Shown: one piece after another, positions 82 through 14,121 of the stretch | Layout of the letters: every line of letters begins with the position of its first letter | Numbering within the stretch: position 1 is the stretch's first letter | Virus record (IMG/VR): IMGVR_UViG_2778261420_000023 | DNA length: 14,121 nt | Strand: one strand, 5' to 3' | Origin: a virus | Taxonomy: Duplodnaviria; Heunggongvirae; Uroviricota; Caudoviricetes | The notes under the pieces: generated by a model | Database searches by the model: none | What the model was told of the DNA's origin: nothing | The model's input: only the letters and a program-made list of their open reading frames with translations | Translations under genes and position numbers: made by a program

Positions 82-375
82 TTAACGTCGTAACCGCTCC
101 GGCTTCTTCCAGTGGTAAGTAATTTTTTCTTTCTCCTGGTACATCTCCACGCGGCGACGATATGACAACAACTCCAGAACTCTGGTGCGTATATTGCGTA
201 TATCCACGCCGTTAAGCTCGATACCGTCACGGCGCATCACCTCAGCCACCACACGCGCGTAATTTTCGGCTATCACGCTGTCCGGCTGCGTGGCCTCCTG
301 TTTGCCTGCTTCCTGGCTGATTCCGGTAACGCGACGGATTATTTTTAGTAGTTCGGTTTCGCTCATTCTCGTCAT
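82..375 (-). CDS. Hypothetical small protein, last gene of the packaging operon (possibly a head-tail adaptor/joining protein)
   Basis: 97-aa ORF; ATG at 375 overlaps the terL stop (ATGA), indicating translational coupling; a second in-frame ATG lies at 366. No motif recognised; the function is a guess from position. Confidence 0.45.
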   Translation of the reverse strand: MTRMSETELLKIIRRVTGISQEAGKQEATQPDSVIAENYARVVAEVMRRDGIELNGVDIRNIRTRVLELLSYRRRVEMYQEKEKITYHWKKPERLRR

Positions 376-2033
376 ACCCCATCAAACGCCGCAAGCCGCT
401 CTTTGTGGCTGTCGCTTATATCAAATGCAAATTCCTCATGTTCTGCCTGGAATGTGCCAAACGCCATCAGAGCCGCAACGCTCGGGTCTATCTTGTTGGA
501 TGATTTTTTCTTGTTCGGCTTGATATTGGCGTTCGCGTCACTCTGCATCACAACATTACTCATTGACCAGGTCAGCACCGGATCGCCACGATGCACAATC
601 ACCTTCCGGTTAACAAAAACTTCGAACGATTTCGCCGCCGGACTGAAACGAAGGTATGTTTGCGGGAACGGCTCCACCTCAAATCCTGCCCCCTGTAGCT
701 GCGTCCTCAGGTGCGTGGCGTTCCATGTATCGAAGCCCACCAGCCTGATATTGAAATTCTCTGCATCCGCCATGATGTCATCACGGATACGGTCATAATC
801 AATGCAGTCACCCGGTGTTGTGCGTATCCAGCCCGCCTTTACCCACTGGCGATAGATGGCGCGGTTTTTATTGGCGGGGTTCTGTAGCTGAAATTCCGGC
901 AGATAGTGACGGGAAACCAGCATAATCTTTTTACCGACCGGAAAGGCATAGCACACGCTGGAAATATCGCTGGTTGATGATAAGTCCAGCCCCGCGTAGC
1001 ACTCCTGACCGTATAAATCCGCCTCCGCGAACGTTCCGGCGCACTCCGCCCATGCACCGTTACCCATCCACGGCGTAGCCCCCTGACACCAGATATTGAA
1101 TCGCTTGGTGAGCATTTCCACCCACTGCGACGGAATACCCCGCGCTTTCTGGATGGTTGAGGCCAGTTTTTCACGATCGACGGAAACATCGATATTGGGA
1201 TTCGCCTTTATCCACATCGCCGGATCGTCAACCTCGCTTTCATCATCCAGCTCGTAAATCAGCACGAACATGGATTCGTTCACCTCTTCACCATCCAGTA
1301 TCTGGCAGCAATAGTCATAGTGTTGTTTACAGGCTGAAACAACGTTGCTCCCCGATGTGGTGATGGCAAATAACAGCCCCTCCGGACGCGCCCCCATTCC
1401 CAGTTCAAGCGCGGAATAAACCCCGTTGTCAGGGTGCAGGTGATATTCATCCACAATGGCAAGACTCGGGTTTGTACCTTCAATGGTTGCCGCTTTTGCT
1501 GCCAGTGGCTTTAACAGGCTGTTGGTTTTCGGGTGTATCACCTTGTGTGCCTGAATATTTACCCGCTTTCGTAACGGTCGGGATAAAAGGCACATCTGAC
1601 GCGCATCATCAAACACGATCCGCGCCTGATCACGACTCACGGCGGCGGTGTAAATATCCTGCTGCCCGTTTTCCATAACCAGAAACCAGTTAGCCAGGAT
1701 AGCGGCGACCGTGGATTTGGCATTTTTTCGCGGCACTTCAATGAATGCGCTGGTGTATTTGCGCCGTCCGGTGGCCTTAACCTTAAAGCCCAGGATGCAC
1801 GCAAAGGTGAACTGCTGCCACGGCTCCAGCTCAATGGGGCTACCGCGCATTGCGCCTTTTACGTGCGGACACACCCTGGAAAAGGCAATAAACCGCTCCA
1901 CGACCTCCGGATCGAACGTGTAAAGGGGGTTTTCAAGGTCAGAAAAATACCGTTTAACGGCCTGTTTCAGTCGTTTACAGGCCGTAATTTTGCCGTTTTT
2001 TACGCCTTCTGCGTACTCATGCCAAGCGGTCAA
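372..2033 (-). CDS. terL: Terminase large subunit (TerL)
   Basis: 553-aa ORF with a Terminase_1-like N-terminus (LEPWQQF...) and a P-loop-like VPRKNAKST motif. The start at 2033 is TTG (the track's M), overlapping the terS 3' end by 17 nt; start codon choice is uncertain. Confidence 0.88.
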   Translation of the reverse strand: MTAWHEYAEGVKNGKITACKRLKQAVKRYFSDLENPLYTFDPEVVERFIAFSRVCPHVKGAMRGSPIELEPWQQFTFACILGFKVKATGRRKYTSAFIEVPRKNAKSTVAAILANWFLVMENGQQDIYTAAVSRDQARIVFDDARQMCLLSRPLRKRVNIQAHKVIHPKTNSLLKPLAAKAATIEGTNPSLAIVDEYHLHPDNGVYSALELGMGARPEGLLFAITTSGSNVVSACKQHYDYCCQILDGEEVNESMFVLIYELDDESEVDDPAMWIKANPNIDVSVDREKLASTIQKARGIPSQWVEMLTKRFNIWCQGATPWMGNGAWAECAGTFAEADLYGQECYAGLDLSSTSDISSVCYAFPVGKKIMLVSRHYLPEFQLQNPANKNRAIYRQWVKAGWIRTTPGDCIDYDRIRDDIMADAENFNIRLVGFDTWNATHLRTQLQGAGFEVEPFPQTYLRFSPAAKSFEVFVNRKVIVHRGDPVLTWSMSNVVMQSDANANIKPNKKKSSNKIDPSVAALMAFGTFQAEHEEFAFDISDSHKERLAAFDGV

Positions 2034-2373
2034 GCTCGTCCTCTTCCTCTGTTTCCGGTGGATTTCTGCGGCGACTTACCGGGTCAAAACCCAGCAAAGA
2101 AGCCATTTTGATCATTATTCTTTCAGCGTCAGCCTTTGCGCTCAGGGCGGGGTTTCTGCTCTCGCTGCCCTGACTGTTAACAATGCTGAACCCGCGCGTG
2201 GCAAGGTCTTCGACGGCTTTGCGGTATATGGAGTAGTTAACGCAATACAGCTCCAGATTGCTCCAGTCGGCGGGGGTAAGGTCTTCCCGTCCGGAAAGCT
2301 GGCGCGATTTTTCCTTCCACTGCCTGACCGCGATTTCATCCAGGTAAGCGGGGGCTTTTGGTGGTCTTGCCAT
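2017..2373 (-). CDS. terS: Terminase small subunit, P27 family
   Basis: MARPPKAPAYLD...LTPADWSNLELYCVNYSIY...NPALSAKADAERIMIKMASLLGFDPVSRRR matches the P27-family TerS pattern. I place the start at the internal ATG 2373 (M48 of the track ORF 2017..2514); the upstream extension is probably not translated. Confidence 0.78.
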   Translation of the reverse strand: MARPPKAPAYLDEIAVRQWKEKSRQLSGREDLTPADWSNLELYCVNYSIYRKAVEDLATRGFSIVNSQGSESRNPALSAKADAERIMIKMASLLGFDPVSRRRNPPETEEEDELDRLA

Positions 2374-2661
2374 GTTCTTTTTTCGCCCAATTATTTTCAA
2401 AAAAATTCCCGTGCACAAAAATTTGAGGAGGCGGTCGGTGTCCGGCAGGGACGGTTTCGTCCTGAAAACCACCCCCACCCCCTCTGACGGCCTCACCAGC
2501 GATTGCGAAAACATTCCATGACCTCGCGGTCACGGTCGGTTAATTGCTTCGCTGTGGTGCGTTCTGTGCGCCCTGTCCTGTTGGCTTTGTGCCCTGTCTC
2601 CTGTGTCTTCCATAAGTCACGCTGCCTTATCAGTCCACGTATCAGCCTGGTTTGCTCCTGT
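2374..2661. other. Candidate cos / terminase recognition region between HNH and terS
   Basis: 288-bp non-coding gap where HK97-like cos phages carry cos. Contains a C-rich tract (ccacccccaccccctc, ~2470-2486), a 5-bp-stem hairpin (ggacg gttt cgtcc, ~2449-2462) and an imperfect direct repeat TGTGC(G)CCCTGTC(TC)CTG at 2565-2580 and 2588-2603. Confidence 0.35.
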
Positions 2662-3102
2662 TCAGTCATCATCGCCATACATCCAGTCGTTACGGTGTGC
2701 TGCCCGTTCTTCCTGCTCGCGATACATGCCCGCCTTACGGTTCGCTTTCGTGGCTGGATCTTCCCGTGTCGTCTTACGGTTGTGGCACGTCTGGCACAAT
2801 GCCTGGTGGTTCCACTCAGGCCAGAAGAGAACATCACCGCCGCCATTGATGGGGATGATGTGATCCACCACAAGAGCTGGCGTATAAATCCCCTTAGCCA
2901 GACAACGCACGCATAACGGGTTTTTGCTCAGGTACAGGGCGCGGTATTTGTCCCACTGTCGGGAATACCCGCGCGCGCGGCGGTGTCCCCGTCTGGCATC
3001 CTCTGCACGCCATACAGCCCGTCTGTGCTCTTCACACTTGCCGGACTTCACGCGCTTATTACAGCCCGGCTCAGTGCATCGCCTTAATGGTTGCCACGGC
3101 AT
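2662..3102 (-). CDS. HNH homing-type endonuclease (phage packaging-associated HNH)
   Basis: 146 aa with Cys pairs (CTEPGC, CEEH) and the HNH core VVDHIIPINGGG...NHQALCQTCHNRKT. ATG at 3102 overlaps the connector stop (ATGA); GGGGG-type SD upstream. Confidence 0.88.
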   Translation of the reverse strand: MPWQPLRRCTEPGCNKRVKSGKCEEHRRAVWRAEDARRGHRRARGYSRQWDKYRALYLSKNPLCVRCLAKGIYTPALVVDHIIPINGGGDVLFWPEWNHQALCQTCHNRKTTREDPATKANRKAGMYREQEERAAHRNDWMYGDDD

Positions 3103-3404
3103 CAGTACACCCCCACATCACGATAAACCGACCAGAGCGCAGAAATAGCCATAGGCAGTTCAGACTGCTTCACTGGTGAAACTGCTTCCCTGTTCTCGTA
3201 CAGGAAAGCGATGTACATCAGGCAACCAACACGCATTGCCGGGGTAAATTCCAGCCCGTCTTCAAAACGTTTCCCGATATGCTTCTGGCAGGCTTCCAGC
3301 GCCGCATCGGTATACATTTTCAGAAGTTCGCCTTCACCGGATAAATCATCATCAAGTCGAAGATGTGCCCTGACTTCATCAGGTGTAATTCTGGCTTCAC
3401 TCAT
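3102..3404 (-). CDS. Head-tail connector protein (gp6-like)
   Basis: MSEARITPDEVRAHLRLDDD...ELLKMYTDAALEACQKHIGKRF matches the gp6-like connector pattern. Start set at ATG 3404 (M22 of the track ORF), preceded by AGGGAGAAAAG SD; overlaps the portal stop by 8 nt. Confidence 0.7.
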   Translation of the reverse strand: MSEARITPDEVRAHLRLDDDLSGEGELLKMYTDAALEACQKHIGKRFEDGLEFTPAMRVGCLMYIAFLYENREAVSPVKQSELPMAISALWSVYRDVGVY

Positions 3405-4611
3405 CTTTTCTCCCTTTAATTTCCACAGTCTGTTTCCATGCCTGGCTGAACTCATCACCACCTTCACGCGGCGGCATACCCTCGCGTTCGCGAGCTTCGT
3501 TCGGATTCATGATCCCGCTCTTAATCCCTTTCTCATACGTGGCATAACGTTCGGTGGGTGTGGCGCGCAGTAAATCGGCTGAATCAAACTCAACCAGATA
3601 ACGGGTACCAGGTACGGGAGAAGTCACCAGCAAAGCGGCCTTGATTTGCTGTTCGAAGTTCGCCAGCCACGGGCGCATTGTCATGGTCAGAAATGCGCGG
3701 CTCGCCTCACTGAAATTGCTGTAGGTGCTGTTGCTGTATTCCTGAAGAAAAATCGGCGACACGTTGAACATCCTGGCGATGTCTTCAATGGAGAAGCGAC
3801 GGGAGGCCAGCCATTCCGCATCCTGGTTACTCATCCCCAGCTGCCTGTAATCCATGCCCCCTTCAAGGATTGGCGTTTTTCCGGCATTTTTCGCCCCCTT
3901 GTAGCGTTCCAGTGCGTCTAATGCCTGTTTACCTTTCACGCCGTCCAGCCATTCACCTGACGTGATAATCCCTGCCGCCATCATGCCATCTTTCATAATG
4001 CTGGCTCCGTGACGCTGTTGAGCAAGGCCAAGCCCCAGCGCCTCACGGCAAATCGTGACGGGGGAACGCCCCAGAAAGCCATCATCCGAGGCATAGCGGA
4101 GATGCAGAACTTCTTCCTGTAAATACGTGCGCACCGTTCCTGTACAGGGTTCGGTGATGGTATAGCGGTATTTGTGTGTGCCTGTGCGTTCCGGTACAAC
4201 ACACCCCGGCGCATAAGGATGAAGTGATTTTGGCTGCCCGTCCCGCCCCCACTCAATAACCGCATAGGCGTTACCGTTCAGCAGGCAGTGACGCATCATT
4301 GTGCGTTTAAACTGGTAAGGTGTCAGGCACGAATTAGGCTGCTCATTCAGCAGAATATCTACCGGGTGACTGTCCAGCCATTCCCGCGCCTCTCTGCCCT
4401 TATCATTGCGTACCAGATACAGGTAACACGGCATCGTGGCCACCGCCTCAGCGATGACAGAAACCGCGTTCATCACAGCAGGCAATGATTCAGCCGTCCC
4501 GGCAGAAACATATTCTCCGGATCCGGTATTTGGTACACCAGACAACGCCAGAAAATCATCAATGGACAGGTTACGCAGATCGCTTTTTTTACGACTAAAA
4601 GGCCACCACAT
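3397..4611 (-). CDS. Portal protein (HK97-family)
   Basis: About 400 aa, positioned between protease and connector; sequence resembles HK97-type portals by recall. Start set at ATG 4611 (M31, MWWPFSRKK...), immediately after the protease stop at 4613. Confidence 0.85.
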   Translation of the reverse strand: MWWPFSRKKSDLRNLSIDDFLALSGVPNTGSGEYVSAGTAESLPAVMNAVSVIAEAVATMPCYLYLVRNDKGREAREWLDSHPVDILLNEQPNSCLTPYQFKRTMMRHCLLNGNAYAVIEWGRDGQPKSLHPYAPGCVVPERTGTHKYRYTITEPCTGTVRTYLQEEVLHLRYASDDGFLGRSPVTICREALGLGLAQQRHGASIMKDGMMAAGIITSGEWLDGVKGKQALDALERYKGAKNAGKTPILEGGMDYRQLGMSNQDAEWLASRRFSIEDIARMFNVSPIFLQEYSNSTYSNFSEASRAFLTMTMRPWLANFEQQIKAALLVTSPVPGTRYLVEFDSADLLRATPTERYATYEKGIKSGIMNPNEAREREGMPPREGGDEFSQAWKQTVEIKGRKDE

Positions 4612-4612
4612 A

Positions 4613-5173
4613 TCACAACCCCGCCAGTTCAGCCCAGCGATGACGATTATTTCCTGCCGGGCGTAATTCAGGGTACTGTGCAAACAACGAACGGTGGGCA
4701 ATCTCCACGCCGGATTCGGGATAAGCAGGCATCGATGTTATCGTGATTTCACGGAGTTCTGCGGCGGTTACAGTACGCAGATACGGTTTTTGCGCGATAT
4801 TCCACTCCTCGCATAATGCGCGAAAGCCAAAGCTCATTCCTGTAATATCGCCACGTTCCACCAGCGTAAGCACATCTTTTCCAAGCTGGGTATTTGGCGG
4901 TGTCAGTTCAAAACGTAGCCCGGTGTTATCCTCAGTCAGTACCAGTGAGCCGGATTTGGTACGCCCCAGCAGTTGGGTATAGTCATGCTCATACAGACAG
5001 CGCACATCATTACCTGCCGCCAGATAGTCAGCAAAAGCCCCCGGCGTGAACTGTTCGCGAAACTCGTCCCAGATAATTTCTGAAAGGCTGTTCCAGCGAA
5101 CGGCATAACCCACCAGTTTTTTATCGCTGGCGGTCAGTTCAGATGTACGGATTTCAAAATCGGTGTTTTTCAT
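4613..5173 (-). CDS. Prohead maturation protease (HK97 family)
   Basis: MKNTDFEIRTSELTASDKKLVGYAVRWNSLSEII... resembles HK97 prohead protease. Start set at ATG 5173 (M76 of the track ORF) with GGAG SD 8 nt upstream; the longer track ORF overlaps the capsid gene and is likely read-through frame only. Confidence 0.8.
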   Translation of the reverse strand: MKNTDFEIRTSELTASDKKLVGYAVRWNSLSEIIWDEFREQFTPGAFADYLAAGNDVRCLYEHDYTQLLGRTKSGSLVLTEDNTGLRFELTPPNTQLGKDVLTLVERGDITGMSFGFRALCEEWNIAQKPYLRTVTAAELREITITSMPAYPESGVEIAHRSLFAQYPELRPAGNNRHRWAELAGL

Positions 5174-5193
5174 CGGTGTACTCCATAAAGCTG

Positions 5194-5222: not shown

Positions 5223-6368
5223 TTACTTGCCAGCCTGAATTTCCAGAATCTTGATGGCGTTCGAATCCACCACACCACCGCCCAGATATTTCTGGGTATA
5301 GATGTTAATGAATCCAGGCTCGCTGAAATCCGGACGGGTACGCGTACCGGTTTTATGGTCAACGATGAAATAACCGCGCTTAAAGTCACCGACTGCAATC
5401 ACACCGTCTGGCATAAATTCCAGATATTCAACCGGAAGCCCCAGCAGAGAATCAGGATCACCAGCCTGTAAACGATCGCGCCAGATGTAATCACCAGTGG
5501 CATTTTTCAGTTTTTGTGCGGAGGCGGCTGTATTTGAGTTCATCACCCATACAGCTTTTTTGCGGTACTTATTGCGCAGCGTAAATTTCAGGTCAATCAG
5601 CATATCGGCGCTGAGACTGCCAGTCACTTTTTTCGTCTGGAGCGTACCGAAAGGACGGGTTTTGTCATTATCCGTAGCGCGCGGGAAAGTCAGGAAACCT
5701 TTGGCTTTTTTCTCGCCATCACCGGAAACCAGATCCGTTTCTTCGGTATCAACGAAAGTGTCGCCAATTTCAGAAGATAACCAGCCCATAATATCGACTT
5801 CGGAAAAATCGATAATTTCCTGAGTGGTTTTCGGGTAAGCGTAGATCGGATACAGGCGGATACTGACTTCATTCAGTTTTGGGGTTGCCGTCTGGTTACG
5901 TGCCGCACCTTCTTCGCCGTGTCCCACGACCGCACCCCCGGCAGAAACCAGTTGCTTAAATTCATTACTGTGAATGGTTTTAACAGTACAGATTTTACGC
6001 ATCACCGACTCATCAGAAAGCTGACGCATAATTTCTCTGTTCAGTTCCGGGATAACCGTATAACCACCATCTGCCGGAACACTGCCGGACAGGTTGCGGG
6101 TTTCCCCGGTCAGAATGTAAGAGCGTAGCTCATTTTTGGTGATTTTATCTTCGACGGGAACACCAGGCTGGTTACGTTCTTCATCAGCCACAGACTCGAG
6201 GCGGGAAATTTCTGTGTCGAGGGAATCGGCTTTTGCACGCAGTTCATCAAACTGTTTGCCTTCGTCATCGGTTAGACTGCGGTTTTCACTGTCGGCTTTT
6301 TCCAGCAGGGATCGCATCTGGTTTTTCAGGGCGGTTTTTTGCTGGCGGAGTTCGATTAATTTCTTCAT
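5223..6368 (-). CDS. Major capsid protein (HK97 fold) with N-terminal delta/scaffold-like domain
   Basis: 381 aa; coiled-coil-like N-terminus (ELRQQKTALKNQMRSLLEKAD...ELRAKADSLDTEISRLESV) followed by a body typical of HK97-family capsids. ATG at 6368. Confidence 0.88.
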   Translation of the reverse strand: MKKLIELRQQKTALKNQMRSLLEKADSENRSLTDDEGKQFDELRAKADSLDTEISRLESVADEERNQPGVPVEDKITKNELRSYILTGETRNLSGSVPADGGYTVIPELNREIMRQLSDESVMRKICTVKTIHSNEFKQLVSAGGAVVGHGEEGAARNQTATPKLNEVSIRLYPIYAYPKTTQEIIDFSEVDIMGWLSSEIGDTFVDTEETDLVSGDGEKKAKGFLTFPRATDNDKTRPFGTLQTKKVTGSLSADMLIDLKFTLRNKYRKKAVWVMNSNTAASAQKLKNATGDYIWRDRLQAGDPDSLLGLPVEYLEFMPDGVIAVGDFKRGYFIVDHKTGTRTRPDFSEPGFINIYTQKYLGGGVVDSNAIKILEIQAGK

Positions 6369-6641: not shown

Positions 6642-6890
6642 TTATTGTTTCACTGGCTCCCGCATTCTGCGTCTTATTTTCCACAAATATTCGATCATCG
6701 CTTCCACCTGCTCACGGTTGGTTGCGAAAATTTCCCCGGTCAGTGAGCTACGCAGAAAATCATGATGATCCACAAAAAATAACGCATCGGAAGAAAGCAA
6801 CCGACGATATTTTTTTGCTGTCGTGGTTTCCAGATCATCAAAACCATGAAGCTTTTTATGTTGCTGAACTTCTTCAAATGTCACTGGCAT
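6642..6890 (-). CDS. Hypothetical protein
   Basis: 82-aa ORF; ATG at 6890 preceded by AAGGGGGA SD; overlaps the 3' end of the ProQ/FinO-like gene by 10 nt. Confidence 0.5.
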   Translation of the reverse strand: MPVTFEEVQQHKKLHGFDDLETTTAKKYRRLLSSDALFFVDHHDFLRSSLTGEIFATNREQVEAMIEYLWKIRRRMREPVKQ

Positions 6891-7459: not shown

Positions 7460-7885
7460 TTAAAACGGTATGTTATCCCCGTACGGGTCATCGTGCTGGC
7501 TTGTCTGTTGTTTTGCCCTGTTCAGTGCGTCAGTGGCCTGGCCCTGTTGACCTTTTTTGCCGCCCGGTCGCGCCGTTCGCGCACTGATTACGCTGTCTGC
7601 AATAACCTGCCAGCCCTGCCGCGTTTCCCCGTTCTGGCCTGTCCACTGGCTCACCTGCATGTTACCCGCCACGCTCACCAGTTCGCCTTTGTGGTGTTTT
7701 GCCAGTGCGTCGGCCTGTCTGCCAAACGCCAGGACAGATAACCACATCGTCGCCGTTCCGTCATCTGCCTGGCTGCACGGCAGGGGAACCGCCATACTCG
7801 CCATCGCCATTTGTGTCCCTTTGCTGGTGGTCTTTAACTGCGGGTCAGCCACCAGCCGCCCGTAAGCCGCTATCTGTGCTGTCAT
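7460..7885 (-). CDS. Single-stranded DNA-binding protein-like (divergent SSB)
   Basis: OB-fold-like pattern (IAAYGRLVADPQLK...WLSVLAFGRQADALAKHHKGELVSVAGNMQVSQWTGQNGETRQGWQVIAD) parallels E. coli SSB, with a Gly/Gln-rich linker and acidic C-terminal DNIPF tail (compare DDDIPF). ATG at 7885 with GGAGAA SD. Confidence 0.65.
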   Translation of the reverse strand: MTAQIAAYGRLVADPQLKTTSKGTQMAMASMAVPLPCSQADDGTATMWLSVLAFGRQADALAKHHKGELVSVAGNMQVSQWTGQNGETRQGWQVIADSVISARTARPGGKKGQQGQATDALNRAKQQTSQHDDPYGDNIPF

Positions 7886-7949
7886 GCTGTCTGTTCTCCG
7901 GTTTTAACGTTGATTGTTACGCTTGTTTACACCCTTACGGTGAAATTCT

Positions 7950-8072
7950 GCGGGTTATAATCGCACTTTTGCGGGTTATAACTGCCGTTTTGCGGGTTAC
8001 GTGCGGGTTATTGATTTCCTTTTTATTCATGCAGTTAATGCACTTATACACAGGATAACCCGCATAACCCGC
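7950..8072. repeat. Candidate replication origin: four direct GCGGGTTA iterons, an AT-rich spacer and two inverted copies
   Basis: Direct copies start at 7950, 7971, 7992 and 8003 (21/21/11-bp spacing); AT-rich 8011-8050; inverted ATAACCCGC at 8055-8063 and 8064-8072. Immediately 3' of the primase/helicase gene. Confidence 0.6.
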
Positions 8073-8095: not shown

Positions 8096-10219
8096 TTAAT
8101 CTTCTGCCTCAGGCTGGAACATCAGCACGTAAAAAACATGCTGCTTCCCCCCAATTTTGCTGAGCGCCTTTTTCTTGTAACGGCGGTCGTTCCCCTTTTC
8201 CAGCATCCCCGCCGCATCAAGCGCTCTTGCAAAATGCGACGGGTTAAATCCCTGTGCGATCTCACCTTCAAACACATGCGGGAACGTGTAAAAACGGAAC
8301 TCGTCATCTTCGTTTCTGATACTCCCCTTTCTGTATCCGGCAAGTTCTTTAATCGGTAAATCACGCTCGTCGGTGTTGGGCCACGGAAGGTATCTGCTGA
8401 ATCCGAACGACGCTAAAAAAGCCTCTGCCTGTTCAACCATCTGTTTAAATTCCCTGTTACCCGTGCCGAACTCCTTCACCCAGGCATTAAAATTATGCTG
8501 TATGGCATCGCGGCACGCCTGAACATCCCAGCCAGTAATATGACCGGACAACACTAACGCCGCCTCAAGCATGGCAAATCGCTCCCCCACACGGTGAACC
8601 TGTTCGCCGTAGCTCTCCGGTATCAGGTTGCGCCACCGTTCACGGCATGCCCTTACCGTGTCCTTTGCTTCCTGCTGGTGGTTTGCCAGCCATTTAACCC
8701 ACTCTCGACCCGCCGCCCCGTGATTTTCTGTCCAGGCATCCTTTAACGCGTCTGCGTGCGCCTTTCCGGTGCTGTATTCGTGAAACTGCGTGGCTTTTTC
8801 CATCGGCACGTTAAGCAGGCGGACAAGCTGCCCCGCCTTGACTTTTATCCCCTCCGTTTTGAGGAATGTTTCAACGTCCATTTCTCCGGTGCTGATTGCC
8901 ACCGTGCGCCAGTGTTTGATCTCCCTGTTGCCGCCGTCCTTCGCCCCCTGTAATTTCCCCGAACCGTTAAACAGCGTATAGGCTGACGTGGACACCTCCC
9001 GCGCGTTTCCGGCCTGACCTATTTCATCCAGGGGTAACAGCCCGTCATTATGCGCTTCGGCCTCGTTGGCGATACCTAACGCCGTGCCGTACCAGGTCAG
9101 CCGTTGTGCGTCCGGCTCTCCCCATAAACTGGATGCGATGTTCTGTGTGGTGGTTTTCCCTGCCGATGACTGTTCGAAAAGATGTACCCCGAAGCCGTCA
9201 GCCCCCACCAGCCCGATTAATGGTGCGGATAACGATACCGCCACACCCAGCATCATGGACGGATTACCACCAGCCAGCCGCGCCACGGTATCGCGCCAAC
9301 CCTCCGCCGTTCCTGCCACGGAATAGCCATTAACAGCAGCCGTTTTTCCGGTAAACAGGGCTGGCTTTTCGCAATCACCAATGACCGAACCGTCCGGCAT
9401 GATGTACGCGCCAAAATGCCAGCCCGTTGTTGTGCTTAACTGCCATTCCTCATGGCTTCCGCTTAACTGCATCCAGTCAGCCAGGATAGCCCTGTATTTG
9501 CCGTTAGTTGTTACGTTCAGTCCGTGGTCTTTCAGCAGCCGCCAGCCGTCACGGTCGCCAATGCCACCGCACGGAACCGCCATTGTGATGACTTCATGGT
9601 TTGCTAATTTTTTCCAGCGCATCACGCGGTAATGCTCTTTACCGATTGTTCCCGTTCCCAGTAGTTCAAGCGGGGAACATAACCACGTCTCAGGCCGGAT
9701 AATTTCGCCTGACTGCTTATCCACTTTTGGCGTTACCCAGAAAACACCATCGGCGCGACTTTCAACGCGGGGCTTTAATTCATCATCGCCCTGGCTTTCT
9801 GTAATTTTTTTCTTTAAAGGCAACACCAGACTTTCCCCGCGCTCGTATTCGTCTTTGAGGCGAGGCAACTGGTCGGATAAATCCGCCGGGCTGGTGTCAG
9901 TTATCCCCGCGTATTCGTATACGGTCTTCACGCCAGCCACAGCCAGCAACGTGACGATCTGTGTAAGGCTACGTTCAGTGATGTGCCCTGCGCGGTAAAT
10001 ACGCACACACTGACGGCTATCATCAATAATTTGATAACCGGTAATATCTTTCAGGTGTTCATCTGACAGAACGACAGGTGGCACATTGTCGGCGGCAATA
10101 TGCTTACCTGCCCATTCCTGCCACTCTTTCGCATGGCTCCACGCATCACTACCTGCAAAGATGATTACCTCCGTCATTTTGTCGGCTGGCTGGTGCTTTA
10201 AGTTTGGTGCGCGCTTCAT
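8096..10219 (-). CDS. Primase/helicase-like replication initiator with P-loop NTPase domain
   Basis: 707 aa; Walker A (EQSSAGKTTTQ) and Walker B-like (GLLPLDEIGQ) motifs; N-terminal region may be a toprim/primase-type domain (EVIIFAGSDAW, unverified). ATG at 10219 overlaps the upstream stop (ATGA). Confidence 0.75.
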   Translation of the reverse strand: MKRAPNLKHQPADKMTEVIIFAGSDAWSHAKEWQEWAGKHIAADNVPPVVLSDEHLKDITGYQIIDDSRQCVRIYRAGHITERSLTQIVTLLAVAGVKTVYEYAGITDTSPADLSDQLPRLKDEYERGESLVLPLKKKITESQGDDELKPRVESRADGVFWVTPKVDKQSGEIIRPETWLCSPLELLGTGTIGKEHYRVMRWKKLANHEVITMAVPCGGIGDRDGWRLLKDHGLNVTTNGKYRAILADWMQLSGSHEEWQLSTTTGWHFGAYIMPDGSVIGDCEKPALFTGKTAAVNGYSVAGTAEGWRDTVARLAGGNPSMMLGVAVSLSAPLIGLVGADGFGVHLFEQSSAGKTTTQNIASSLWGEPDAQRLTWYGTALGIANEAEAHNDGLLPLDEIGQAGNAREVSTSAYTLFNGSGKLQGAKDGGNREIKHWRTVAISTGEMDVETFLKTEGIKVKAGQLVRLLNVPMEKATQFHEYSTGKAHADALKDAWTENHGAAGREWVKWLANHQQEAKDTVRACRERWRNLIPESYGEQVHRVGERFAMLEAALVLSGHITGWDVQACRDAIQHNFNAWVKEFGTGNREFKQMVEQAEAFLASFGFSRYLPWPNTDERDLPIKELAGYRKGSIRNEDDEFRFYTFPHVFEGEIAQGFNPSHFARALDAAGMLEKGNDRRYKKKALSKIGGKQHVFYVLMFQPEAED

Positions 10220-10530
10220 TTTGCCTTTCCCCGTTCACGAATAATTTCACGTACTGCCTTAATGCGTTCCATTCCTGTAACGCGCATGATTCTGTCGATG
10301 TCGCTTAATTCTGCTGGTGGTGCTTTGCTTACCAGGGTGAACTCCCTTTCAAAGCGCATATGCGACGACACGCAGGGATGCGCATAACCTTCGCGGATAT
10401 AGGTCACGCGAAAATCATCGACGGTTTTAATCGTTATCGTGCTGCCGTATTTATCCCGGAAAATATCGCCGGGGCGGATTTCAGGCCGAGCGGGGCCGCT
10501 GGCAGTAAAGCCAGAATTTTTCTTTTTCAT
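10216..10530 (-). CDS. Hypothetical protein
   Basis: 104-aa ORF with ATG at 10530, translationally coupled to the primase gene; no motif recognised. Confidence 0.5.
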   Translation of the reverse strand: MKKKNSGFTASGPARPEIRPGDIFRDKYGSTITIKTVDDFRVTYIREGYAHPCVSSHMRFEREFTLVSKAPPAELSDIDRIMRVTGMERIKAVREIIRERGKAK

Positions 10531-10536
10531 ATTTTT

Positions 10537-10755
10537 TTACTCCAGAGGCAGCTTTTTAGCGGCGAGCTCAATATCAGATGTCAGAGAAACCTGTGTATTT
10601 GCCAGGTCTAACAGCAAAGAAATAAGAATTTCTTCTCTGCTATCGGATTTATCGGTGCTAAGGCTGTTCATCCACATATTGACGACTTCCCTGATTTTTT
10701 TCGCAGAGTGCAGGGCTTCAAATGCCAGGTCTTCAATATCATGTTTATTTCGCAT
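10537..10755 (-). CDS. Hypothetical small protein
   Basis: Start placed at ATG 10755 (MRNKHDIEDL...), preceded by GGCGGGGGCG; overlaps the upstream gene by 11 nt. Alternative starts at 10770 and 10785. Confidence 0.4.
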   Translation of the reverse strand: MRNKHDIEDLAFEALHSAKKIREVVNMWMNSLSTDKSDSREEILISLLLDLANTQVSLTSDIELAAKKLPLE

Positions 10756-10990
10756 AATCGCCCCCGCCATTTTCACAATCAGCAATCAGGATGGCTTTAG
10801 CCTCATTCAGCGCCATATCAGCGGTAAGCTGTGCGTAAGCCAGCGAATGCGGGATTATCGCCCCTGTATATTCCGGCTCTCTGGTAATGTGTTTTTCTGC
10901 GATTGCTACCGTGCATGAAATATCAATCAGCGCGTGCATCAGCGTTTTGATGGCTTCGGCGGCTGCGTCCGGACGGGTGTTATTGCACAT
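10745..10990 (-). CDS. Hypothetical small protein
   Basis: 81-aa ORF; ATG at 10990 preceded by AGGGGGTGA SD; 11-nt overlap with the upstream gene. Confidence 0.45.
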   Translation of the reverse strand: MCNNTRPDAAAEAIKTLMHALIDISCTVAIAEKHITREPEYTGAIIPHSLAYAQLTADMALNEAKAILIADCENGGGDYAK

Positions 10991-11192
10991 GTCTCACCCC
11001 CTGAATATTCGCGTTAATCATTCCGGCACGTTCTGCGAGTTCCTGTAATGATTCCCTTGTTGCGACAATGGCTTCATCTGGCAGGTGGTAATTACACACC
11101 ACGCGACCTTTATCCACATTGACCAGTAGCTGCCCGGTAAATTTCTCACGAAACTGAACGCGGTTAAGGTCGGTAAGTGACAGGTTAATCAT
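10980..11192 (-). CDS. Hypothetical small protein
   Basis: Start placed at ATG 11192 (MINLSLTDLN...), preceded by GGGGGAAG SD; 8-nt overlap (ATGATTAA) with the upstream ORF stop. Confidence 0.45.
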   Translation of the reverse strand: MINLSLTDLNRVQFREKFTGQLLVNVDKGRVVCNYHLPDEAIVATRESLQELAERAGMINANIQGVRHVQ

Positions 11193-11388
11193 GGTCTTCC
11201 CCCTGGCGAATACGGGCAGCAAATACCATCACGCAGCCATCAGGAGATTGCTGACGCGCTTCCTGTTCGCTGGTGGCCTCAATGGTAATCACGCGCGGTT
11301 GTGCCGTGCTCAGGGCGATAAAACGCCAGATGTATTTATTCAGGTTGTACGAGTCCCGCCCTTGCGGGTGTCTGGTATAATTTCTCAT
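11185..11388 (-). CDS. Hypothetical small protein, first gene of the leftward operon
   Basis: 67-aa C-terminal segment of the long track ORF, starting at ATG 11388 with GAGG SD 6-7 nt upstream; the rest of the 370-aa ORF is judged spurious. Confidence 0.35.
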   Translation of the reverse strand: MRNYTRHPQGRDSYNLNKYIWRFIALSTAQPRVITIEATSEQEARQQSPDGCVMVFAARIRQGEDHD

Positions 11389-11464
11389 AGCTGCCTCGAT
11401 ACGCTTTCTATCGTTGGTGGTTAGACGCCCTGCATGTGTGCCACCACTGCGGGGCGTTGTTGTT

Positions 11465-11514
11465 TGGTGCATTGCACCATTCGGTTTTAACCTATCAATA
11501 AGTGAATCGCACTT
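11465..11514. promoter_or_regulatory. Palindromic operator-like sites in the divergent control region
   Basis: TGGTGCA-T-TGCACCA (11465-11479) and AAGTG-AATCG-CACTT (11500-11514); the core TGAATCGCAC recurs at 11548-11557 overlapping a TATACT -10-like hexamer (11543-11548) upstream of the plus-strand RHH gene. Confidence 0.5.
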
Positions 11515-11578
11515 CAAGCCTTTCTCTGAAATTTTTTTTGTGTATACTGAATCGCACCAACTTAGAGAGGATTCAGTA

Positions 11579-11758
11579 ATGGCAACAGGTTCAACAAATA
11601 ATAAGTCGCAACAGTTAAATGCCAGATTCCCGCATGATGTTGTTGCAGACTTAGAAAAAAATTTAGATGAAGGTGAAAGCAAGGCGCAATTTATAGTTAC
11701 TGCCGTTAAAGGTGAGATCAAACGCCGCCAGCGCCGCAAGGCCAAAGAGCAGGAGTAA
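11579..11758 (+). CDS. Small ribbon-helix-helix-like DNA-binding protein (candidate repressor/switch protein)
   Basis: 59 aa (MATGSTNNKSQQLNARFPHDVVADLEKNLDEGESKAQFIVTAVKGEIKRRQRRKAKEQE): beta-strand-then-helices pattern typical of Arc/MetJ/CopG proteins, basic tail. ATG at 11579 with GAGAGG SD 8 nt upstream. One of only two plus-strand genes called. Confidence 0.5.
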   Translation: MATGSTNNKSQQLNARFPHDVVADLEKNLDEGESKAQFIVTAVKGEIKRRQRRKAKEQE

Positions 11759-11815
11759 CCATCACCAGCGCCGTGGTGTAAGGTATTACGGCGCATTGCT
11801 ATGCAGGACAACACA

Positions 11816-11989
11816 ATGACCGATAAAGAATTGACCAAAACATTATCACCGACACGGAAAAGACGGCGCAGAAAGATAGAGCATGAATCAGAAAGATTCG
11901 CGCCATGTGCTTTTGCCCTTGAGCAATTCCTTAAAGAGTACAGGGAAAAGCGCTCATTGCAGGTATGGCAACGAACTGAACCAGACTGA
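11816..11989 (+). CDS. Hypothetical small basic protein
   Basis: 57 aa from ATG 11816 (AGGA 8 nt upstream), downstream of the RHH gene and upstream of a plus-strand terminator; no motif recognised. Confidence 0.3.
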   Translation: MTDKELTKTLSPTRKRRRRKIEHESERFAPCAFALEQFLKEYREKRSLQVWQRTEPD

Positions 11990-12055
11990 TTGCATTGCCC
12001 ACCAGCCGCAAATGTGGCATTGTTGGTGATGCTTTTGTTTTCCCTTGTTCCCACT

Positions 12056-12085
12056 GGCGACCCTTTTGCGGTCGCCTTTGTTTTG
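12056..12085 (+). terminator. Rho-independent terminator of the short plus-strand unit
   Basis: GGCGACC-cttttgc-GGTCGCC stem-loop (12056-12076) followed by TTTGTTTTG. Confidence 0.55.
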
Positions 12086-12122
12086 CCTGTTATCCGGCAA
12101 TAGTGGCGCTTCACCACACGGT

Positions 12123-12208
12123 TGATATAATTCCCCTGCACTGATCCATTTTTTTCGCAGCAGGTTAATTGTTCAGAAAGGCGGTTCCTTATCGGGGCCG
12201 CTTTTTTT
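12123..12208 (+). ncRNA. Candidate small RNA unit: extended -10 promoter plus intrinsic terminator with no ORF between
   Basis: TGATATAAT at 12123-12131 matches extended -10 consensus TGnTATAAT; an 8-bp-stem hairpin (12181-12201, two G.U pairs) is followed by seven T (12202-12208). Predicted transcript about 70 nt, antisense to read-through from alpA. Confidence 0.3.
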
Positions 12209-12349
12209 ATGCCTGAAAATACCCGATAACATGGCTTTTTAGTTTCACCAGGACGAACGAAGCCCCGCCCCTGTTCGGGCGTATATCCAGTATTCATGGT
12301 TAGATCTCTGTGTTAGTGGATGGGTGGCGGCGGTGCGCCGCCAGCCTGA

Positions 12350-12553
12350 TTAGTGAACTGCCTCGCGGCTGTCCTTCCATGCCAGAACTTCGGATAAAGA
12401 CCAGCCAACGGAACGACCGCCGAGTTTACGCCGTGATGGGAATTGTCCAGTCTTCTCCAGGCGATACCGACATGAGCGGCTCAGGCCTGTAAGTTGCTGA
12501 CATTCTTTTTCACGTATAAAGCGATCAGCGCTTAACACTATTGCCTCCGTCAT
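12350..12553 (-). CDS. alpA: AlpA-family transcriptional regulator / excisionase-like protein
   Basis: 67 aa; LTGLSRSCRYRLEKTGQFPSRRKLGGRSVGWSLSEVLAWK matches the AlpA helix-turn-helix signature (TGLSRSTIYRL..G.FP....LG.R.VGW...E...W). Confidence 0.85.
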   Translation of the reverse strand: MTEAIVLSADRFIREKECQQLTGLSRSCRYRLEKTGQFPSRRKLGGRSVGWSLSEVLAWKDSREAVH

Positions 12554-12570
12554 TTCTCAAAGAGTCATTT

Positions 12571-12600
12571 GGTGTCTTATTGTGTCGTATTGTTCCCGCT
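12571..12600. promoter_or_regulatory. Three 10-bp-phased TGTSTC/TTGTTCC repeats 18-47 bp upstream of the alpA start codon
   Basis: ggtgtcttat / tgtgtcgtat / tgttcccgct; same motif family as the arrays at 12811-12870 and 6563-6589. Confidence 0.45.
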
Positions 12601-12810
12601 AGAGTGATGAATGGCAAATATTGGTGACGGTCGTTTTACAGATATGGGGTAATTAGAATAAAAATACTTTTAATTCATTGTGATGTAGTAGCGTAAAATT
12701 TTGCTTTTACGCCTTTTTTACATATTTTTAAGAGTGATTCGCCAGTGTATAAAAAAACAGTATACATATAAAAATCAAATGGTTATGAATGAGTTTGATT
12801 TTTAATCCGC

Positions 12811-12870
12811 TTGTCCCATTTTGTTCCTTGTTGTTCGTCGTTGTGTCTCGTTGTTCCACGTTGTGTCCGT
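12811..12870. repeat. Six tandem degenerate 10-bp units (TTGTYCNNNN) just 3' of the integrase stop
   Basis: ttgtcccatt / ttgttccttg / ttgttcgtcg / ttgtgtctcg / ttgttccacg / ttgtgtccgt, exact 10-bp register. Confidence 0.6.
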
Positions 12871-12891
12871 TCTGAAAAATCACGAAAAAAA

Positions 12892-14121
12892 TTATATTTC
12901 TCTGGCTATTGGCAGTGTGGTTACGTTTTCGTGAGTACCTGCCAGTATCTCTAACCGCTCTGTCCACATGTCCAGCGCATTACGTTTCGCATCGAGATAA
13001 CGGGAGTGGTTATAGACTCGCTGCATCCCTGGCATCTGGTGAGCGGTGAGTTGTTCGACAATATGCGGATCCACGCCTAAATCATTCAGCATCGTGGTAA
13101 ACGTGCGCCGTATATCGTGTAGTGACCAGTGCGGATGGTTTAATTTTTTGTGCGTGAATCTGCCGTATTGCGACACGCTGGCTTCCTGTTTCAGTTCCCC
13201 GAGTAATAGCCCTGTGTGTCGGTTCTGCTCCACCAGCCGTGTGACGAACGGTAAAATGCTTTCCGGTATTGGCCTGAATATGGCTACCTTCGTTTTGCTG
13301 TGCTCCTTCGGTACTGTCCAGAGCATTTCCTTAAAATCCCACTCCCTGATCTCCGACAGCCTCAGTTCTCCGGTTCGGCAACCAAACACAATCAGGAGGC
13401 GGATTAGTGCGCTGTAGTAGGGCGGGAATATTTTTTTATCCAGCGCCTGTAATAATTCGCCCAGTTCTTTGTTACTAAGCACGCGTTCGCTTATGCCTGG
13501 TTTTTTACCAACGTCCACCACGTTGAGATCATCCAGAGCGTTACTGACGGCATAGCGGCGTTTACGACAGAATTTAAGCGCCTGTTTGCACGCCTGCATC
13601 ATGTGACCAGACGTTACGGGGGATTTTTTGCGTATCCGGTCAAAACAGGCCAGCCAGTGACGTAATTCGCATTTATCCAGTGGCATGTTACCGATGTGCT
13701 GTATGACGTGATTATTCAGGCGACTTTTCAGGCATACATAATCGACACGGTTTTCCTTTACGTGCGTTTCCAGCCAGTAACTGATCGCATCGCCAACCGT
13801 TACGGGTTTTAACGCTTCCTGCACAGTGTAGTTCAGTTCATGACGTGGGTTTTTCCCTTCTGCCAGCCATGCACGACACTTTGCGGCTTTTTCCCTGGCT
13901 GCTTTAAGGCTCAGATCGGGATAGTTTCCCAGCTTCAGACGTTCCGGTGTGGTATCCCTTCCCGTTCCAGCCCTGTAGGTGAAGTACCAGGTCAATTTAC
14001 CTGATGTTAAATATTTCACGCTCAGATTACCGCCATCGCTATAGAACGTATTTTTCTCCGCTGGCTTACCATAAAGTTTTCTTAACAATGTATCGTTCAG
14101 TTTGTTAAGCGCTCTGCTCAC
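12892..14121 (-). CDS. int: Tyrosine site-specific integrase, P4-type with N-terminal arm-binding domain
   Basis: 409 aa; N-terminus resembles the DUF4102 arm-binding region of CP4-57 IntA; catalytic signature present (GCRTGELR, HDIRRT, LTAHQ, RVYNHSRYL). The start is GTG at 14121..14119 on the window edge, so the true start may lie beyond the window. Confidence 0.88.
   Translation of the reverse strand: MSRALNKLNDTLLRKLYGKPAEKNTFYSDGGNLSVKYLTSGKLTWYFTYRAGTGRDTTPERLKLGNYPDLSLKAAREKAAKCRAWLAEGKNPRHELNYTVQEALKPVTVGDAISYWLETHVKENRVDYVCLKSRLNNHVIQHIGNMPLDKCELRHWLACFDRIRKKSPVTSGHMMQACKQALKFCRKRRYAVSNALDDLNVVDVGKKPGISERVLSNKELGELLQALDKKIFPPYYSALIRLLIVFGCRTGELRLSEIREWDFKEMLWTVPKEHSKTKVAIFRPIPESILPFVTRLVEQNRHTGLLLGELKQEASVSQYGRFTHKKLNHPHWSLHDIRRTFTTMLNDLGVDPHIVEQLTAHQMPGMQRVYNHSRYLDAKRNALDMWTERLEILAGTHENVTTLPIAREI

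Follow-up and report, generated by a model that had tools for sequence, protein, structure and literature searches.

The window, the whole stretch of 14,121 nucleotides that was analysed, encodes at one end a P4-like tyrosine integrase (12892..14121, minus strand; Pfam Arm-DNA-bind_3 5.6e-18, Phage_integrase 1.3e-16) with an N-terminal arm-binding domain and a catalytic domain. By blastp the integrase was 84% identical to that of EcCIEDL933, the experimentally proven prototype of those phage-inducible chromosomal islands that form capsids (cf-PICIs), from E. coli O157:H7 EDL933 (bioRxiv 10.1101/2022.09.08.507074; 10.1101/2025.02.11.637232). An AlpA-family regulator (12350..12553, minus strand; Pfam Phage_AlpA 3.4e-18) was 87% identical to the EcCIEDL933 AlpA (blastp); a mutant phenotype shows that alpA of EcCIEDL933 is needed for helper-dependent induction (Alqurainy et al., bioRxiv 10.1101/2022.09.08.507074). 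A repeat search of the int-alpA intergenic region (12554..12891) found TTGT(T/G)NC repeats with 10-bp periodicity at 12570-12596 and 12811-12860, which are probably binding sites of a recombinase or a regulator; an imperfect 76-nt repeat related to them was present at the two ends of the island in L001. A promoter-like site lay upstream of alpA at 12617-12589; such sites were no commoner than expected by chance. The leader and accessory region (11536..12349) contained two small plus-strand genes, a YlcI/YnfO-family gene (11579-11758; NCBIfam YlcI_YnfO_N 1.5e-17) and a 62-aa ORF (11801-11989), followed by a terminator-like hairpin (12056-12076, plus strand). A 370-aa minus-strand ORF in this region is probably not a real gene: its reading frame is annotated as a pseudogene in a relative (H1). 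It was 56% identical to a "247-aa hypothetical" of EcCIEDL933, and 11766-12007 shared 98.8% identical bases with EcCIEDL933. An Icd-like homologue of host cell-division inhibitors followed (11185..11535, minus strand; NCBIfam phage_ICD_like 2.7e-19).

Four small overlapping minus-strand genes (10216..11192), encoding proteins of 70, 81, 72 and 104 aa, preceded the replication gene. The 104-aa protein matched Pfam DUF4222 (3.4e-19), the small genes matched PHROGs without assigned function, and PADLOC gave no matches to defence systems among them. The replication initiator/helicase (Rep; 8096..10219, minus strand; Pfam DUF927 1.4e-45) was 83% identical to the EcCIEDL933 rep product (blastp) and matched the "Pathogenicity island protein" PDB 8TCH (1.8e-14) and the SCCmec helicase 5DGK. 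The first-pass annotation had called it a primase/helicase; the helicase, of SaPI Rep-like DUF927 type, was borne out, and no primase domain was detected in Pfam and PDB comparisons of the protein. The replication origin (7946..8072) lay immediately downstream of rep; an origin adjacent to this gene had been proposed. The iteron GCGGGTTA occurred six times in the window, four forward and two inverted, all at 7950-8072 and flanking an AT-rich spacer of ~45 bp; about 0.5 copies were expected by chance, and six were reached in 0 of 200 shuffles. Next came a single-stranded DNA-binding protein (7460..7885; Pfam SSB 4e-16), an accessory ProQ/FinO-family RNA-binding protein (6881..7423; Pfam ProQ 8.5e-24; NCBIfam FinO/ProQ) and an 82-aa protein without assigned function (6642..6890; phrog_1957 4e-36), all on the minus strand; the last was 40% identical (blastp) to a 74-aa gene that in EcCIEDL933 lies upstream of capsid.

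The remaining genes, also on the minus strand, formed a head and packaging module in the order capsid, protease, portal, connector, HNH, TerS, TerL. The HK97-fold major capsid protein (MCP; 5223..6368; Pfam Phage_capsid 7e-61) was 74% identical to the EcCIEDL933 MCP and matched PDB 9GYI, the EcCIEDL933 capsid as solved by cryo-EM, with E = 1e-184. The "connector loop" region of the prototype (residues 227-248) aligned without gaps. The EcCIEDL933 MCP forms T=4 shells (He et al., bioRxiv 10.1101/2025.02.11.637232). An HK97-family prohead serine protease (4613..5173; Pfam Peptidase_S78 1.2e-44) and a portal protein (3397..4611; Pfam Phage_portal 2e-91) were 61% and 80% identical to their EcCIEDL933 counterparts. 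The gp6-like head-tail connector Ad1 (3102..3404; Phage_connect_1; PHROG 40 "head-tail adaptor Ad1" 1.5e-28; TIGR01560) overlapped the portal stop and abutted the gene of an HNH endonuclease (2662..3102; Pfam HNH 8.8e-10), which was 84% identical to its counterpart. In HK97-type cos packaging, HNH is a terminase accessory factor.

A 61-aa ORF (2493..2678, minus strand; phrog_3173 9e-28) was 78% identical (blastp) to a 60-aa ORF that occupies the same place in EcCIEDL933 and is probably "gene 1792", numbering from the capsid gene as 1786 and following gene order. Mutation of gene 1792 severely lowered EcCIEDL933 transfer (Alqurainy et al.). The non-coding gap upstream of terS (2374..2492) is a candidate cos region. 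By analogy with the related linear record LR881103, whose ends lie between the small ORF and terS, with the right end aligning at about position 2459, cos is likely within this gap, although the ends of that record may be arbitrary. The P27-family small terminase subunit TerS (2017..2373; Pfam Terminase_4 4e-23; TIGR01558) and the large subunit TerL, with ATPase and nuclease domains (372..2033; Pfam TerL_ATPase 3.7e-26, TerL_nuclease 2.4e-52), were 88% and 93% identical to those of EcCIEDL933. The last gene of the operon encoded a 97-aa protein without assigned function (82..375, minus strand; phrog_1561 8.7e-50), which shared 77% identity with the 93-aa gene that follows terL in EcCIEDL933 (blastp). 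The integrase, AlpA and the head and packaging genes named in the first-pass annotation were thus found where it had placed them, with strong Pfam, NCBIfam and PHROGs profile matches that included the capsid and terminase families, and the nearly single-stranded organization with overlapping genes was as it had described. In agreement with its account, profile searches of the window proteins gave no match to any tail, baseplate, fibre or lysis family.

Window positions 1-12033 were 100% identical to contig NORX01000057.1 (NCBI GCA_002521845.1), on which the sequence past terL and the 97-aa gene held only ~700 bp of non-coding DNA, followed by a 3' yifB fragment, maoP and hdfR. Tail or lysis genes were absent beyond terL on this contig, which is the window's own. 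In every locus with an identical integrase, the sequence past that gene held a 5' fragment of yifB together with the ilv operon. A 16-bp direct repeat, ATCCGCTATT(T/G)ATAAT, was present at both yifB junctions and bounded an island of ~15.0 kb. The island reached ~700 bp past position 1 and ~200 bp past position 14121, and both att sites therefore lay outside the window. The window is ~94% of a ~15.0-kb cf-PICI (a type of element whose description dates from 2023) inserted in E. coli yifB; its gene content, gene order, homology, boundaries and origin repeats were observed directly. Relatives of the island were carried by ~10% of complete E. coli genomes.

The gene order agreed with the published layout of Proteobacteria cf-PICIs and, gene for gene, with EcCIEDL933. 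Both elements have int, alpA, an icd-like gene, small ORFs, DUF4222, DUF927 rep, origin iterons, ssb and a small ORF on the left, and capsid, protease, portal, connector, HNH, a ~60-aa ORF, TerS, TerL and a ~95-aa ORF on the right. The iteron motif GCGGGTTA was the same in EcCIEDL933, and the sizes were similar (15.4-15.5 kb for EcCIEDL933 and ~15.0 kb for the island). Protein identity over the packaging module was 56-93%, in keeping with the 50-90% reported for the cf-PICI family. The island thus joins the known cf-PICI family, as the first-pass annotation had proposed; the yifB flanks, the profile matches and the synteny with EcCIEDL933 support this assignment. The two elements differed in several respects. 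The att site was in yifB in the island, whereas EcCIEDL933 occupies the phoQ-roxA interval; EcCIEDL933 has a PerC regulator where the island has ProQ/FinO; the plus-strand YlcI/YnfO gene set the island apart; and a second iteron cluster, which in EcCIEDL933 stands in tandem next to rep, was located at the island's terL end.

The element is very probably a cf-PICI, integrated into yifB by its P4-like integrase, that would follow an EcCIEDL933-type cycle. By analogy with the prototype, a helper phage would trigger AlpA expression and the island would then excise. The DUF927 Rep helicase would replicate it from the iteron origin beside rep. The single minus-strand operon would supply capsid protein, protease, portal and connector for a small T=4 head, which the HNH-TerS-TerL terminase of the island would fill with unit-length island DNA, starting at a cos site that probably lies close upstream of terS. 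Tails would be supplied by the helper phage. The account of induction, capsid size and tail theft is inferred from EcCIEDL933.

The one unusual point of the island is the absence of a head-completion gene. In EcCIEDL933 the portal and connector genes are separated by a Phage_HCP gene, number 1789 judging by its position, so that the prototype has two neck genes and the connector is the only one in the island. The DNA alignment to EcCIEDL933 showed a clean ~350-bp gap at this position, and a search of the entire island, translated in all six frames, gave no HCP homologue (the best E was 1.7, whereas the control reached 8e-64). The head set had been described as complete; the genes named in it were confirmed, but completeness relative to the prototype was not. 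According to Alqurainy et al., EcCIEDL933 transfer requires every packaging-module gene except 1792; judged by position, the required genes would include 1789. The island might accordingly be a decaying cf-PICI, in which HCP loss disabled particle maturation, transfer was lost and only vertical persistence remains. The transfer-abolishing mutations in the prototype module are in line with such decay, as are the pseudogene-like reading frame in the region after alpA and a clearly degraded relative (L013, strain DSM 103263) that has no capsid and rep genes and a truncated protease. However, the ten remaining core genes were all intact, and the connector was a distinct allele, ~56-57% identical to EcCIEDL933 gene 1790, and not a simple deletion scar. 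Of 5,426 E. coli genomes, 143 carried the one-connector module, which was found at no fewer than three att sites with differing integrases and replication modules; this implies that mobility and recombination went on after HCP loss. Among one-connector islands with 5-20% synonymous difference, dN/dS was 0.02-0.25 over connector, portal, capsid, HNH and TerL; in three diverged islands it was 0.09-0.25 for the connector, 0.04-0.06 for the portal, 0.08 for the capsid and 0.07-0.13 for TerL. Because of the 143 genomes, the at least three integration sites and the purifying selection, the one-connector version is probably functional, as judged from sequence, and decay is unlikely. In a functional cf-PICI that lacks this stopper, either the helper would supply the protein along with the tail, or the connector allele would work alone.

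The structural genes all belonged to families of HK97-type phages, and the module could in principle be the head and packaging part of an ordinary HK97-like prophage with its tail and lysis genes outside the window. HK97-like E. coli prophages (flanking islands in loci L003 and L012) and phages SfI, SfII and phiP27 have the same head and packaging protein families, and P27-family TerS is common to the island and the HK97-like phages/phiP27 group. This explanation was refuted by the host genes, which lay ~700 bp past the last gene on the window's own contig and in every close relative, in the place where contiguous tail or lysis genes would have spoken against a cf-PICI. The direct repeats in yifB also argued against it. 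HK97-like prophages and phages run terS-terL-portal-protease-capsid-Ad1-Hc1 and then tail genes, whereas the island has the reversed, capsid-first and terminase-last order of cf-PICIs; the first-pass annotation had read this order correctly, and the prophages at L003 and L012 have the opposite one. Connector identity to HK97-like prophages and true phages was only 26-37%, with 32-37% for the true phages. True phages showed no DNA similarity: just four of 50,697 phage-collection records matched at the DNA level, including two satellite-sized (LR881103, 16.5 kb) or fragmentary records and a 106-kb Klebsiella record matched at its end. An ordinary prophage is thus extremely improbable.

A P4-like satellite or a classical PICI, which forms no capsid and instead remodels those of its helper, would likewise carry a P4-type integrase, AlpA, an Icd-like gene and a left half of the type common in classical E. 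coli PICIs, but is hardly credible here, since MCP, protease, portal, connector and TerL are all encoded by the island itself, and the Psu, Sid and Delta families were unmatched in Pfam scans. Classical PICIs have no capsid, portal or TerL genes. The replication modules are alike: Rep is homologous to the solved SaPI protein 8TCH, and in SaPIs and classical PICIs, as in the island, an iteron origin surrounds an AT-rich spacer next to rep. For the cf-PICI assignment, the island had 10 of the 11 core components of the SatelliteFinder cfPICI class and no tail or holin genes, and its size and protein count were near the medians, 14 kb and 19 proteins, of that class (de Sousa et al., NAR 2023, PMC10085698). 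Because one core component is missing, the predicted call from the core-component count is probably Type B (10/11), the class with the most members (459 of 969 elements; de Sousa et al.).

The identification of the window as a capsid-forming phage-inducible chromosomal island (cf-PICI) in the first-pass annotation is correct, and the island is largely ordinary. ORF listing and profile searches of the whole window gave one long minus-strand gene array. The predicted P4-type integrase was confirmed as a tyrosine integrase with an Arm-DNA-bind_3 N-terminus and a Phage_integrase domain (12892–14121; Pfam), and AlpA was found beside it (12350–12553; Pfam Phage_AlpA, 3.4e-18). The array also encodes an Icd-like protein (11185–11535), three small ORFs (10537–11192), a DUF4222 protein (10216–10530), a 707-aa DUF927 protein, Rep (8096–10219; Pfam), SSB (7460–7885), a ProQ/FinO-family protein (6881–7423), and an 82-aa ORF (6642–6890); the Icd-like, DUF4222, SSB, and ProQ/FinO assignments came from profile searches. 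HMM searches also matched the capsid and terminase families. The head and packaging genes are the HK97-type major capsid protein (5223–6368; Pfam; PDB 9GYI, E = 1e-184), S78 prohead protease (4613–5173; Pfam), portal (3397–4611; Pfam), gp6/Ad1-type connector (3102–3404; Phage_connect_1, PHROG 40, TIGR01560), HNH endonuclease (2662–3102; Pfam HNH), a 61-aa ORF (2493–2678), P27-family TerS (2017–2373; Pfam Terminase_4), TerL (372–2033; Pfam TerL_ATPase and TerL_nuclease), and a 97-aa ORF (82–375). Nearly all genes are on one strand, as had been noted; just two small genes, YlcI/YnfO (11579–11758) and a 62-aa ORF (11801–11989), are on the plus strand.

A 370-aa ORF at 11185–12297 is very unlikely to be a real gene, since it shares sequence with the Icd-like gene and both plus-strand genes, has an odd composition, and is a pseudogene in the annotation of the closest genome. 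The window contains no tRNA gene. An Rfam scan of the whole window (E ≤ 0.1) returned no family, and no C4/CI-type RNA was recognisable ahead of the Icd-like gene; a PADLOC scan of ten small or accessory proteins returned no defence family. A sigma-70 consensus scan of the window found fewer promoter-like sites than in shuffled sequences, and terminator-like sites were barely more numerous than in shuffles; operon boundaries are therefore not claimed from the scan.

The boundaries of the island were determined from related loci. The window TerL protein had an exact match on contig NORX01000057.1 (GCA_002521845.1), which is 100% identical to window positions 1–12033. Past window position 1, this contig has about 700 bp without a recognisable gene, followed by the 3′ 455 codons of yifB, maoP, and hdfR. 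On the int side, a 5′ yifB fragment and the ilv operon were found at every locus encoding an identical integrase. The two closest complete genomes have the same host flanks on both sides, and the host flank is 97.7–98.4% identical to E. coli chromosomes. A search for att repeats in the extended flanks, which had been proposed, found a 16-bp direct repeat, ATCCGCTATT(T/G)ATAAT, exactly at both yifB junctions (window coordinates about −700 and +14308). The att-bounded island is about 15.0 kb, of which the window covers 94%. The description of cf-PICIs calls for an attachment site that prophages do not use; here the site lies inside yifB, and a literature search found no paper linking yifB with PICIs.

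An HK97-like temperate phage would have contiguous tail, tail-fibre, and lysis modules, and the presence of such genes past terL had been named as the result that would count against a satellite. Since yifB, maoP, and hdfR lie past terL on the window's own contig, the outcome for that side is negative; host genes flank both sides of the island, and no window ORF matched a tail or lysis family (Pfam, PHROGs), as the first reading had stated. A P4-like satellite would carry a Psu-Delta-Sid operon and use the P2 capsid and terminase. No such family appeared in Pfam scans of all ORFs, and the island has capsid and terminase genes of its own. A classical Gram-negative PICI of the EcCICFT073 type has no portal, connector, capsid, or TerL and uses helper capsid proteins; the island encodes all four.

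The published layout of Proteobacteria cf-PICIs is int-alpA-rep, capsid-protease-portal-head connectors, and hnh-terS-terL, with no tail or lysis genes (bioRxiv 10.1101/2022.09.08.507074). The gene order of the window in the ORF map, capsid-protease-portal-connector-hnh-terS-terL, is the same as this order and as that of EcCIEDL933, the prototype cf-PICI, so the suggested comparison with published islands agreed. The sequence of EcCIEDL933 was taken from strain EDL933 and compared gene by gene by blastp. Identity was 93% for TerL, 88% for TerS, 87% for AlpA, 84% for Int and HNH, 83% for Rep, 80% for portal, 78% for the 61-aa ORF, 77% for the 97-aa ORF, 74% for capsid, 69% for SSB, 61% for protease, and 56% for the connector. 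The structure 9GYI is the EcCIEDL933 capsid, a T=4 shell of 47.5 nm (bioRxiv 10.1101/2025.02.11.637232); its "connector loop" (residues 227–248) aligned with the window capsid without gaps.

The island has int at one end, AlpA beside int, Rep with an origin, and its own capsid, protease, portal, connector, HNH, TerS, and TerL. Its size, about 15.0 kb, falls in the cf-PICI range (about 10–15 kb), and between the att sites it carries neither tail nor holin nor lysis genes. The sole tested core feature that was absent is the head-tail adaptor, or head-completion protein (HCP), and the head and packaging set described earlier as complete contains every other member. The cfPICI model of SatelliteFinder has 11 core components, accepts 9–11 of them (as Types A, B, and C), and does not allow tails or holins (PMC10085698), so an island with 10 of 11 remains within the family quorum. 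By comparison with the published component list, the island is a cfPICI with 10 of 11 core components and probably belongs to Type B, the commonest class (459 of 969; PMC10085698).

Two neck genes separate portal and HNH in EcCIEDL933: an HCP (112 aa; Pfam Phage_HCP, E = 7e-23) and a gp6-like connector, numbered 1789 ("head-tail adaptor") and 1790 in the papers. In contrast, the window has the connector alone between portal and HNH. In the DNA alignment with EcCIEDL933, the portal end and the connector gene were conserved, and about 350 bp were cleanly absent between them. No HCP match was found in the island by tblastn. All six reading frames across the full island were also searched with an HMM built from three HCPs; the best E was 1.7, compared with 8e-64 in the positive control. 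The 97-aa, 82-aa, and 61-aa ORFs were considered as HCP substitutes and rejected, since EcCIEDL933 has all three together with HCP. The connector of the window is a distinct allele, 57% identical to the connectors of islands carrying both neck genes; the absence of HCP therefore looks, from the sequences compared, like a cassette exchange and not a fresh deletion. A phage-like connector N-terminus, which would have pointed to pairing with the HCP of a helper, was not supported: about 13 of 43 positions were identical to prophage Ad1 and about 20 of 43 to cf-PICI connectors, with alignment columns counted by hand.

The two-gene form is more widespread and occurs in EcCIEDL933-type islands, the island of E. 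coli Evo1, LR881103, and a Pasteurella element. In EcCIEDL933, mutating any gene of the packaging module except 1792 is reported to have abolished transfer (bioRxiv 10.1101/2022.09.08.507074); by its position the HCP gene belongs to this set, and it appears to be essential in the prototype. The neck genes set the tail compatibility and host range of cf-PICIs (He et al., bioRxiv 10.1101/2025.02.11.637232).

The portal-connector-HNH junction of the window was present at full length in 143 E. coli genomes with 94–99.8% identity, and the annotated genes were intact. A portal-to-capsid relative was present in 534 of 5,426 complete E. coli genomes; of the 534 with this capsid family, 143, roughly one in four, have the version without HCP. 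The one-connector form occupies at least three insertion sites: yifB, the inside of a prophage terL (E. coli KFu019), and the fis–yhdJ interval (E. coli DSM 103263, degraded). Pairwise Nei-Gojobori dN/dS among three one-connector islands (dS 0.05–0.29) was 0.09–0.25 for the connector, 0.04–0.06 for portal, 0.08 for capsid, 0.02–0.03 for HNH, and 0.07–0.13 for TerL. The number of genomes, the insertion sites, and the low dN/dS, the last from three sequences, argue for continued function and mobility after HCP loss.

One-connector cf-PICIs may be a functional sub-lineage that gave up its own HCP (stopper), a tentative reading to which we give somewhat less than even weight. The helper would then supply a head-closing protein together with the tail, or the diverged connector allele would both seal the portal and dock the tail. 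Under either option the head-tail interface would have changed, and one-connector islands might fail to release the stable tail-less DNA-filled capsids described for other cf-PICIs. Completion of such capsids with tails in vitro has been carried out for EcCIEDL933 and KpCIDSM30104. A search of paper texts on cf-PICI head closure found no discussion of particle completion without HCP.

The island is a clean, well-delimited representative of a satellite family whose members build their own capsids, borrow tails, and in this way carry DNA from one enterobacterial species to another. The result is mostly confirmatory. Near-identical copies are present in E. coli genomes already released, and current software would probably report the island as a cfPICI; the gene content of cf-PICI variants without HCP is already catalogued. 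The useful new point is comparative: HCP is absent in about one quarter of carriers, yet purifying selection acts on the remaining genes of the module. Since neck proteins decide which phage tails are usable, a natural one-protein neck is a direct handle on the minimal head-tail interface, and also on which further helper components a satellite can exploit.

The DUF927 protein is assigned as a Rep-type initiator/helicase from its homology to a SaPI protein of known structure (8TCH, E = 2e-14) and to the helicase of SCCmec. Profile searches detected no primase domain in it, so of the proposed primase/helicase with adjacent origin, the helicase and the origin were retained. The origin consists of six copies of GCGGGTTA, all within 7950–8072 between the rep stop codon and ssb, four of them in direct and two in inverted orientation, flanking an AT-rich spacer. 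The chance expectation for the window is about 0.5 copies, and six were reached in 0 of 200 shuffles. Among islands that share the integrase, att site, and packaging module, the replication protein is one of three unrelated types: DUF927 (707 aa), AAA_25 (468 aa), or a D5_N/DUF5906/Pox_D5 primase (604 aa). On this sequence comparison, replication genes are exchanged between islands as a cassette.

Outside the window, on the terL side of the island, there is a second GCGGGTTA cluster, which spans about −420 to −260 relative to window position 1 (NORX01000057.1, 12207–12360; 7676–7828 in L001, a close relative carrying the whole island). This cluster has three direct and three or four inverted copies around an AT-rich spacer. 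In another island at the same att site (L004), with a D5/Pox_D5-type primase in place of the DUF927 Rep, the terL-end cluster is present and the rep-proximal cluster is absent, which links the terL-end cluster to the packaging end and not to the rep gene. EcCIEDL933 has two iteron clusters in tandem adjoining rep, whereas the window's island has one by rep and one at the terL end.

The sequence itself shows the integration site, the modules, the repeats of the origin, and the relationship to an experimentally proven system; from the prototype we infer the following life cycle. A helper phage would activate alpA, the island would excise, and Rep-driven replication would start from the iterons. 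The major capsid protein, protease, and portal would assemble a T=4 procapsid, HNH-TerS-TerL would carry out cos-type packaging of the 15-kb unit, and the connector would attach before a helper tail is joined. Helper-dependent AlpA induction, T=4 capsids, exclusive self-packaging, and helper-tail dependence have been shown only for EcCIEDL933 and a few others (bioRxiv 10.1101/2022.09.08.507074; 10.1101/2025.02.11.637232). The cos site is tentatively placed in the 119-bp gap upstream of terS, its probable position; the ends of LR881103 are suggestive of this placement only, as that record may have been opened at an arbitrary point, and the window is about 60 bases longer at this place.

The 61-aa ORF lies between HNH and terS, overlapping the end of HNH and bordering the presumed cos region. 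Its homologue in EcCIEDL933 is a 60-aa ORF, probably gene 1792. Among three islands compared, the 61-aa ORF had 4–5 non-synonymous and 0 synonymous differences, unlike all neighbour genes, and these numbers are small. Short TTGT(T/G)NC repeats with 10-bp spacing were observed in the alpA-int interval (12570–12596 and 12811–12860), and an imperfect 76-nt repeat of related sequence (78% identity) occurs at each end of the island, just within the boundary (7383–7458 and 22198–22273 in L001). Both are probably arm-type recombinase sites. The stretch 11766–12007 (242 bp) is 98.8% identical to EcCIEDL933 (20467–20708 of the EDL933 locus), while the flanking genes are just 80–87% identical. It contains the plus-strand 62-aa ORF and is followed by a plus-strand terminator-like hairpin at 12056–12076; Rfam gave no match to this stretch or the hairpin region.

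The whole window had just four DNA-level matches in a phage collection: LR881103 (satellite-sized, 16.5 kb, deposited as a phage), two fragments, and a 106-kb Klebsiella record matching at its end. The true phages SfI, SfII, and phiP27 had a connector identity of just 32–37%. At least 80% of the whole window was found in 12 complete E. coli genomes, with up to 98.6% identity. Bases 1–11459 match strain AST217 at 99.5% identity, and the int end matches strains E500002 and E203449 at 99.3–99.4%; by these alignments, the window is a mosaic of known relatives.

Other islands were observed in the same searches. cf-PICIs with a different integrase lie inside HK97-like prophage terL in the Evo1 locus (5594–20426) and the KFu019 locus (5003–20080), splitting the gene into N- and C-terminal pseudogene fragments, and a satellite thus occupies a packaging gene of what may be a helper. 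The Evo1 island has head closure and connector genes, and the KFu019 island has a single connector, as in the window. The position of the accessory ProQ/FinO gene is occupied by a PerC-family regulator in the EcCIEDL933, Evo1, and KFu019 islands. Two records deposited as phages have the cf-PICI layout: LR881103.1, "Escherichia phage vB_KppS-Ant" (16.5 kb), with a 766-aa gene after terL annotated in the record as a tape measure protein, and OR544139.1, "Pasteurella phage Pmp8" (15.3 kb), with an annotated "tail terminator" upstream of the capsid gene. The one-connector island between fis and yhdJ in the DSM 103263 locus (6136–15368) is degraded; capsid, rep, and ssb are lost, the protease is truncated, and the portal-to-TerL block is intact.
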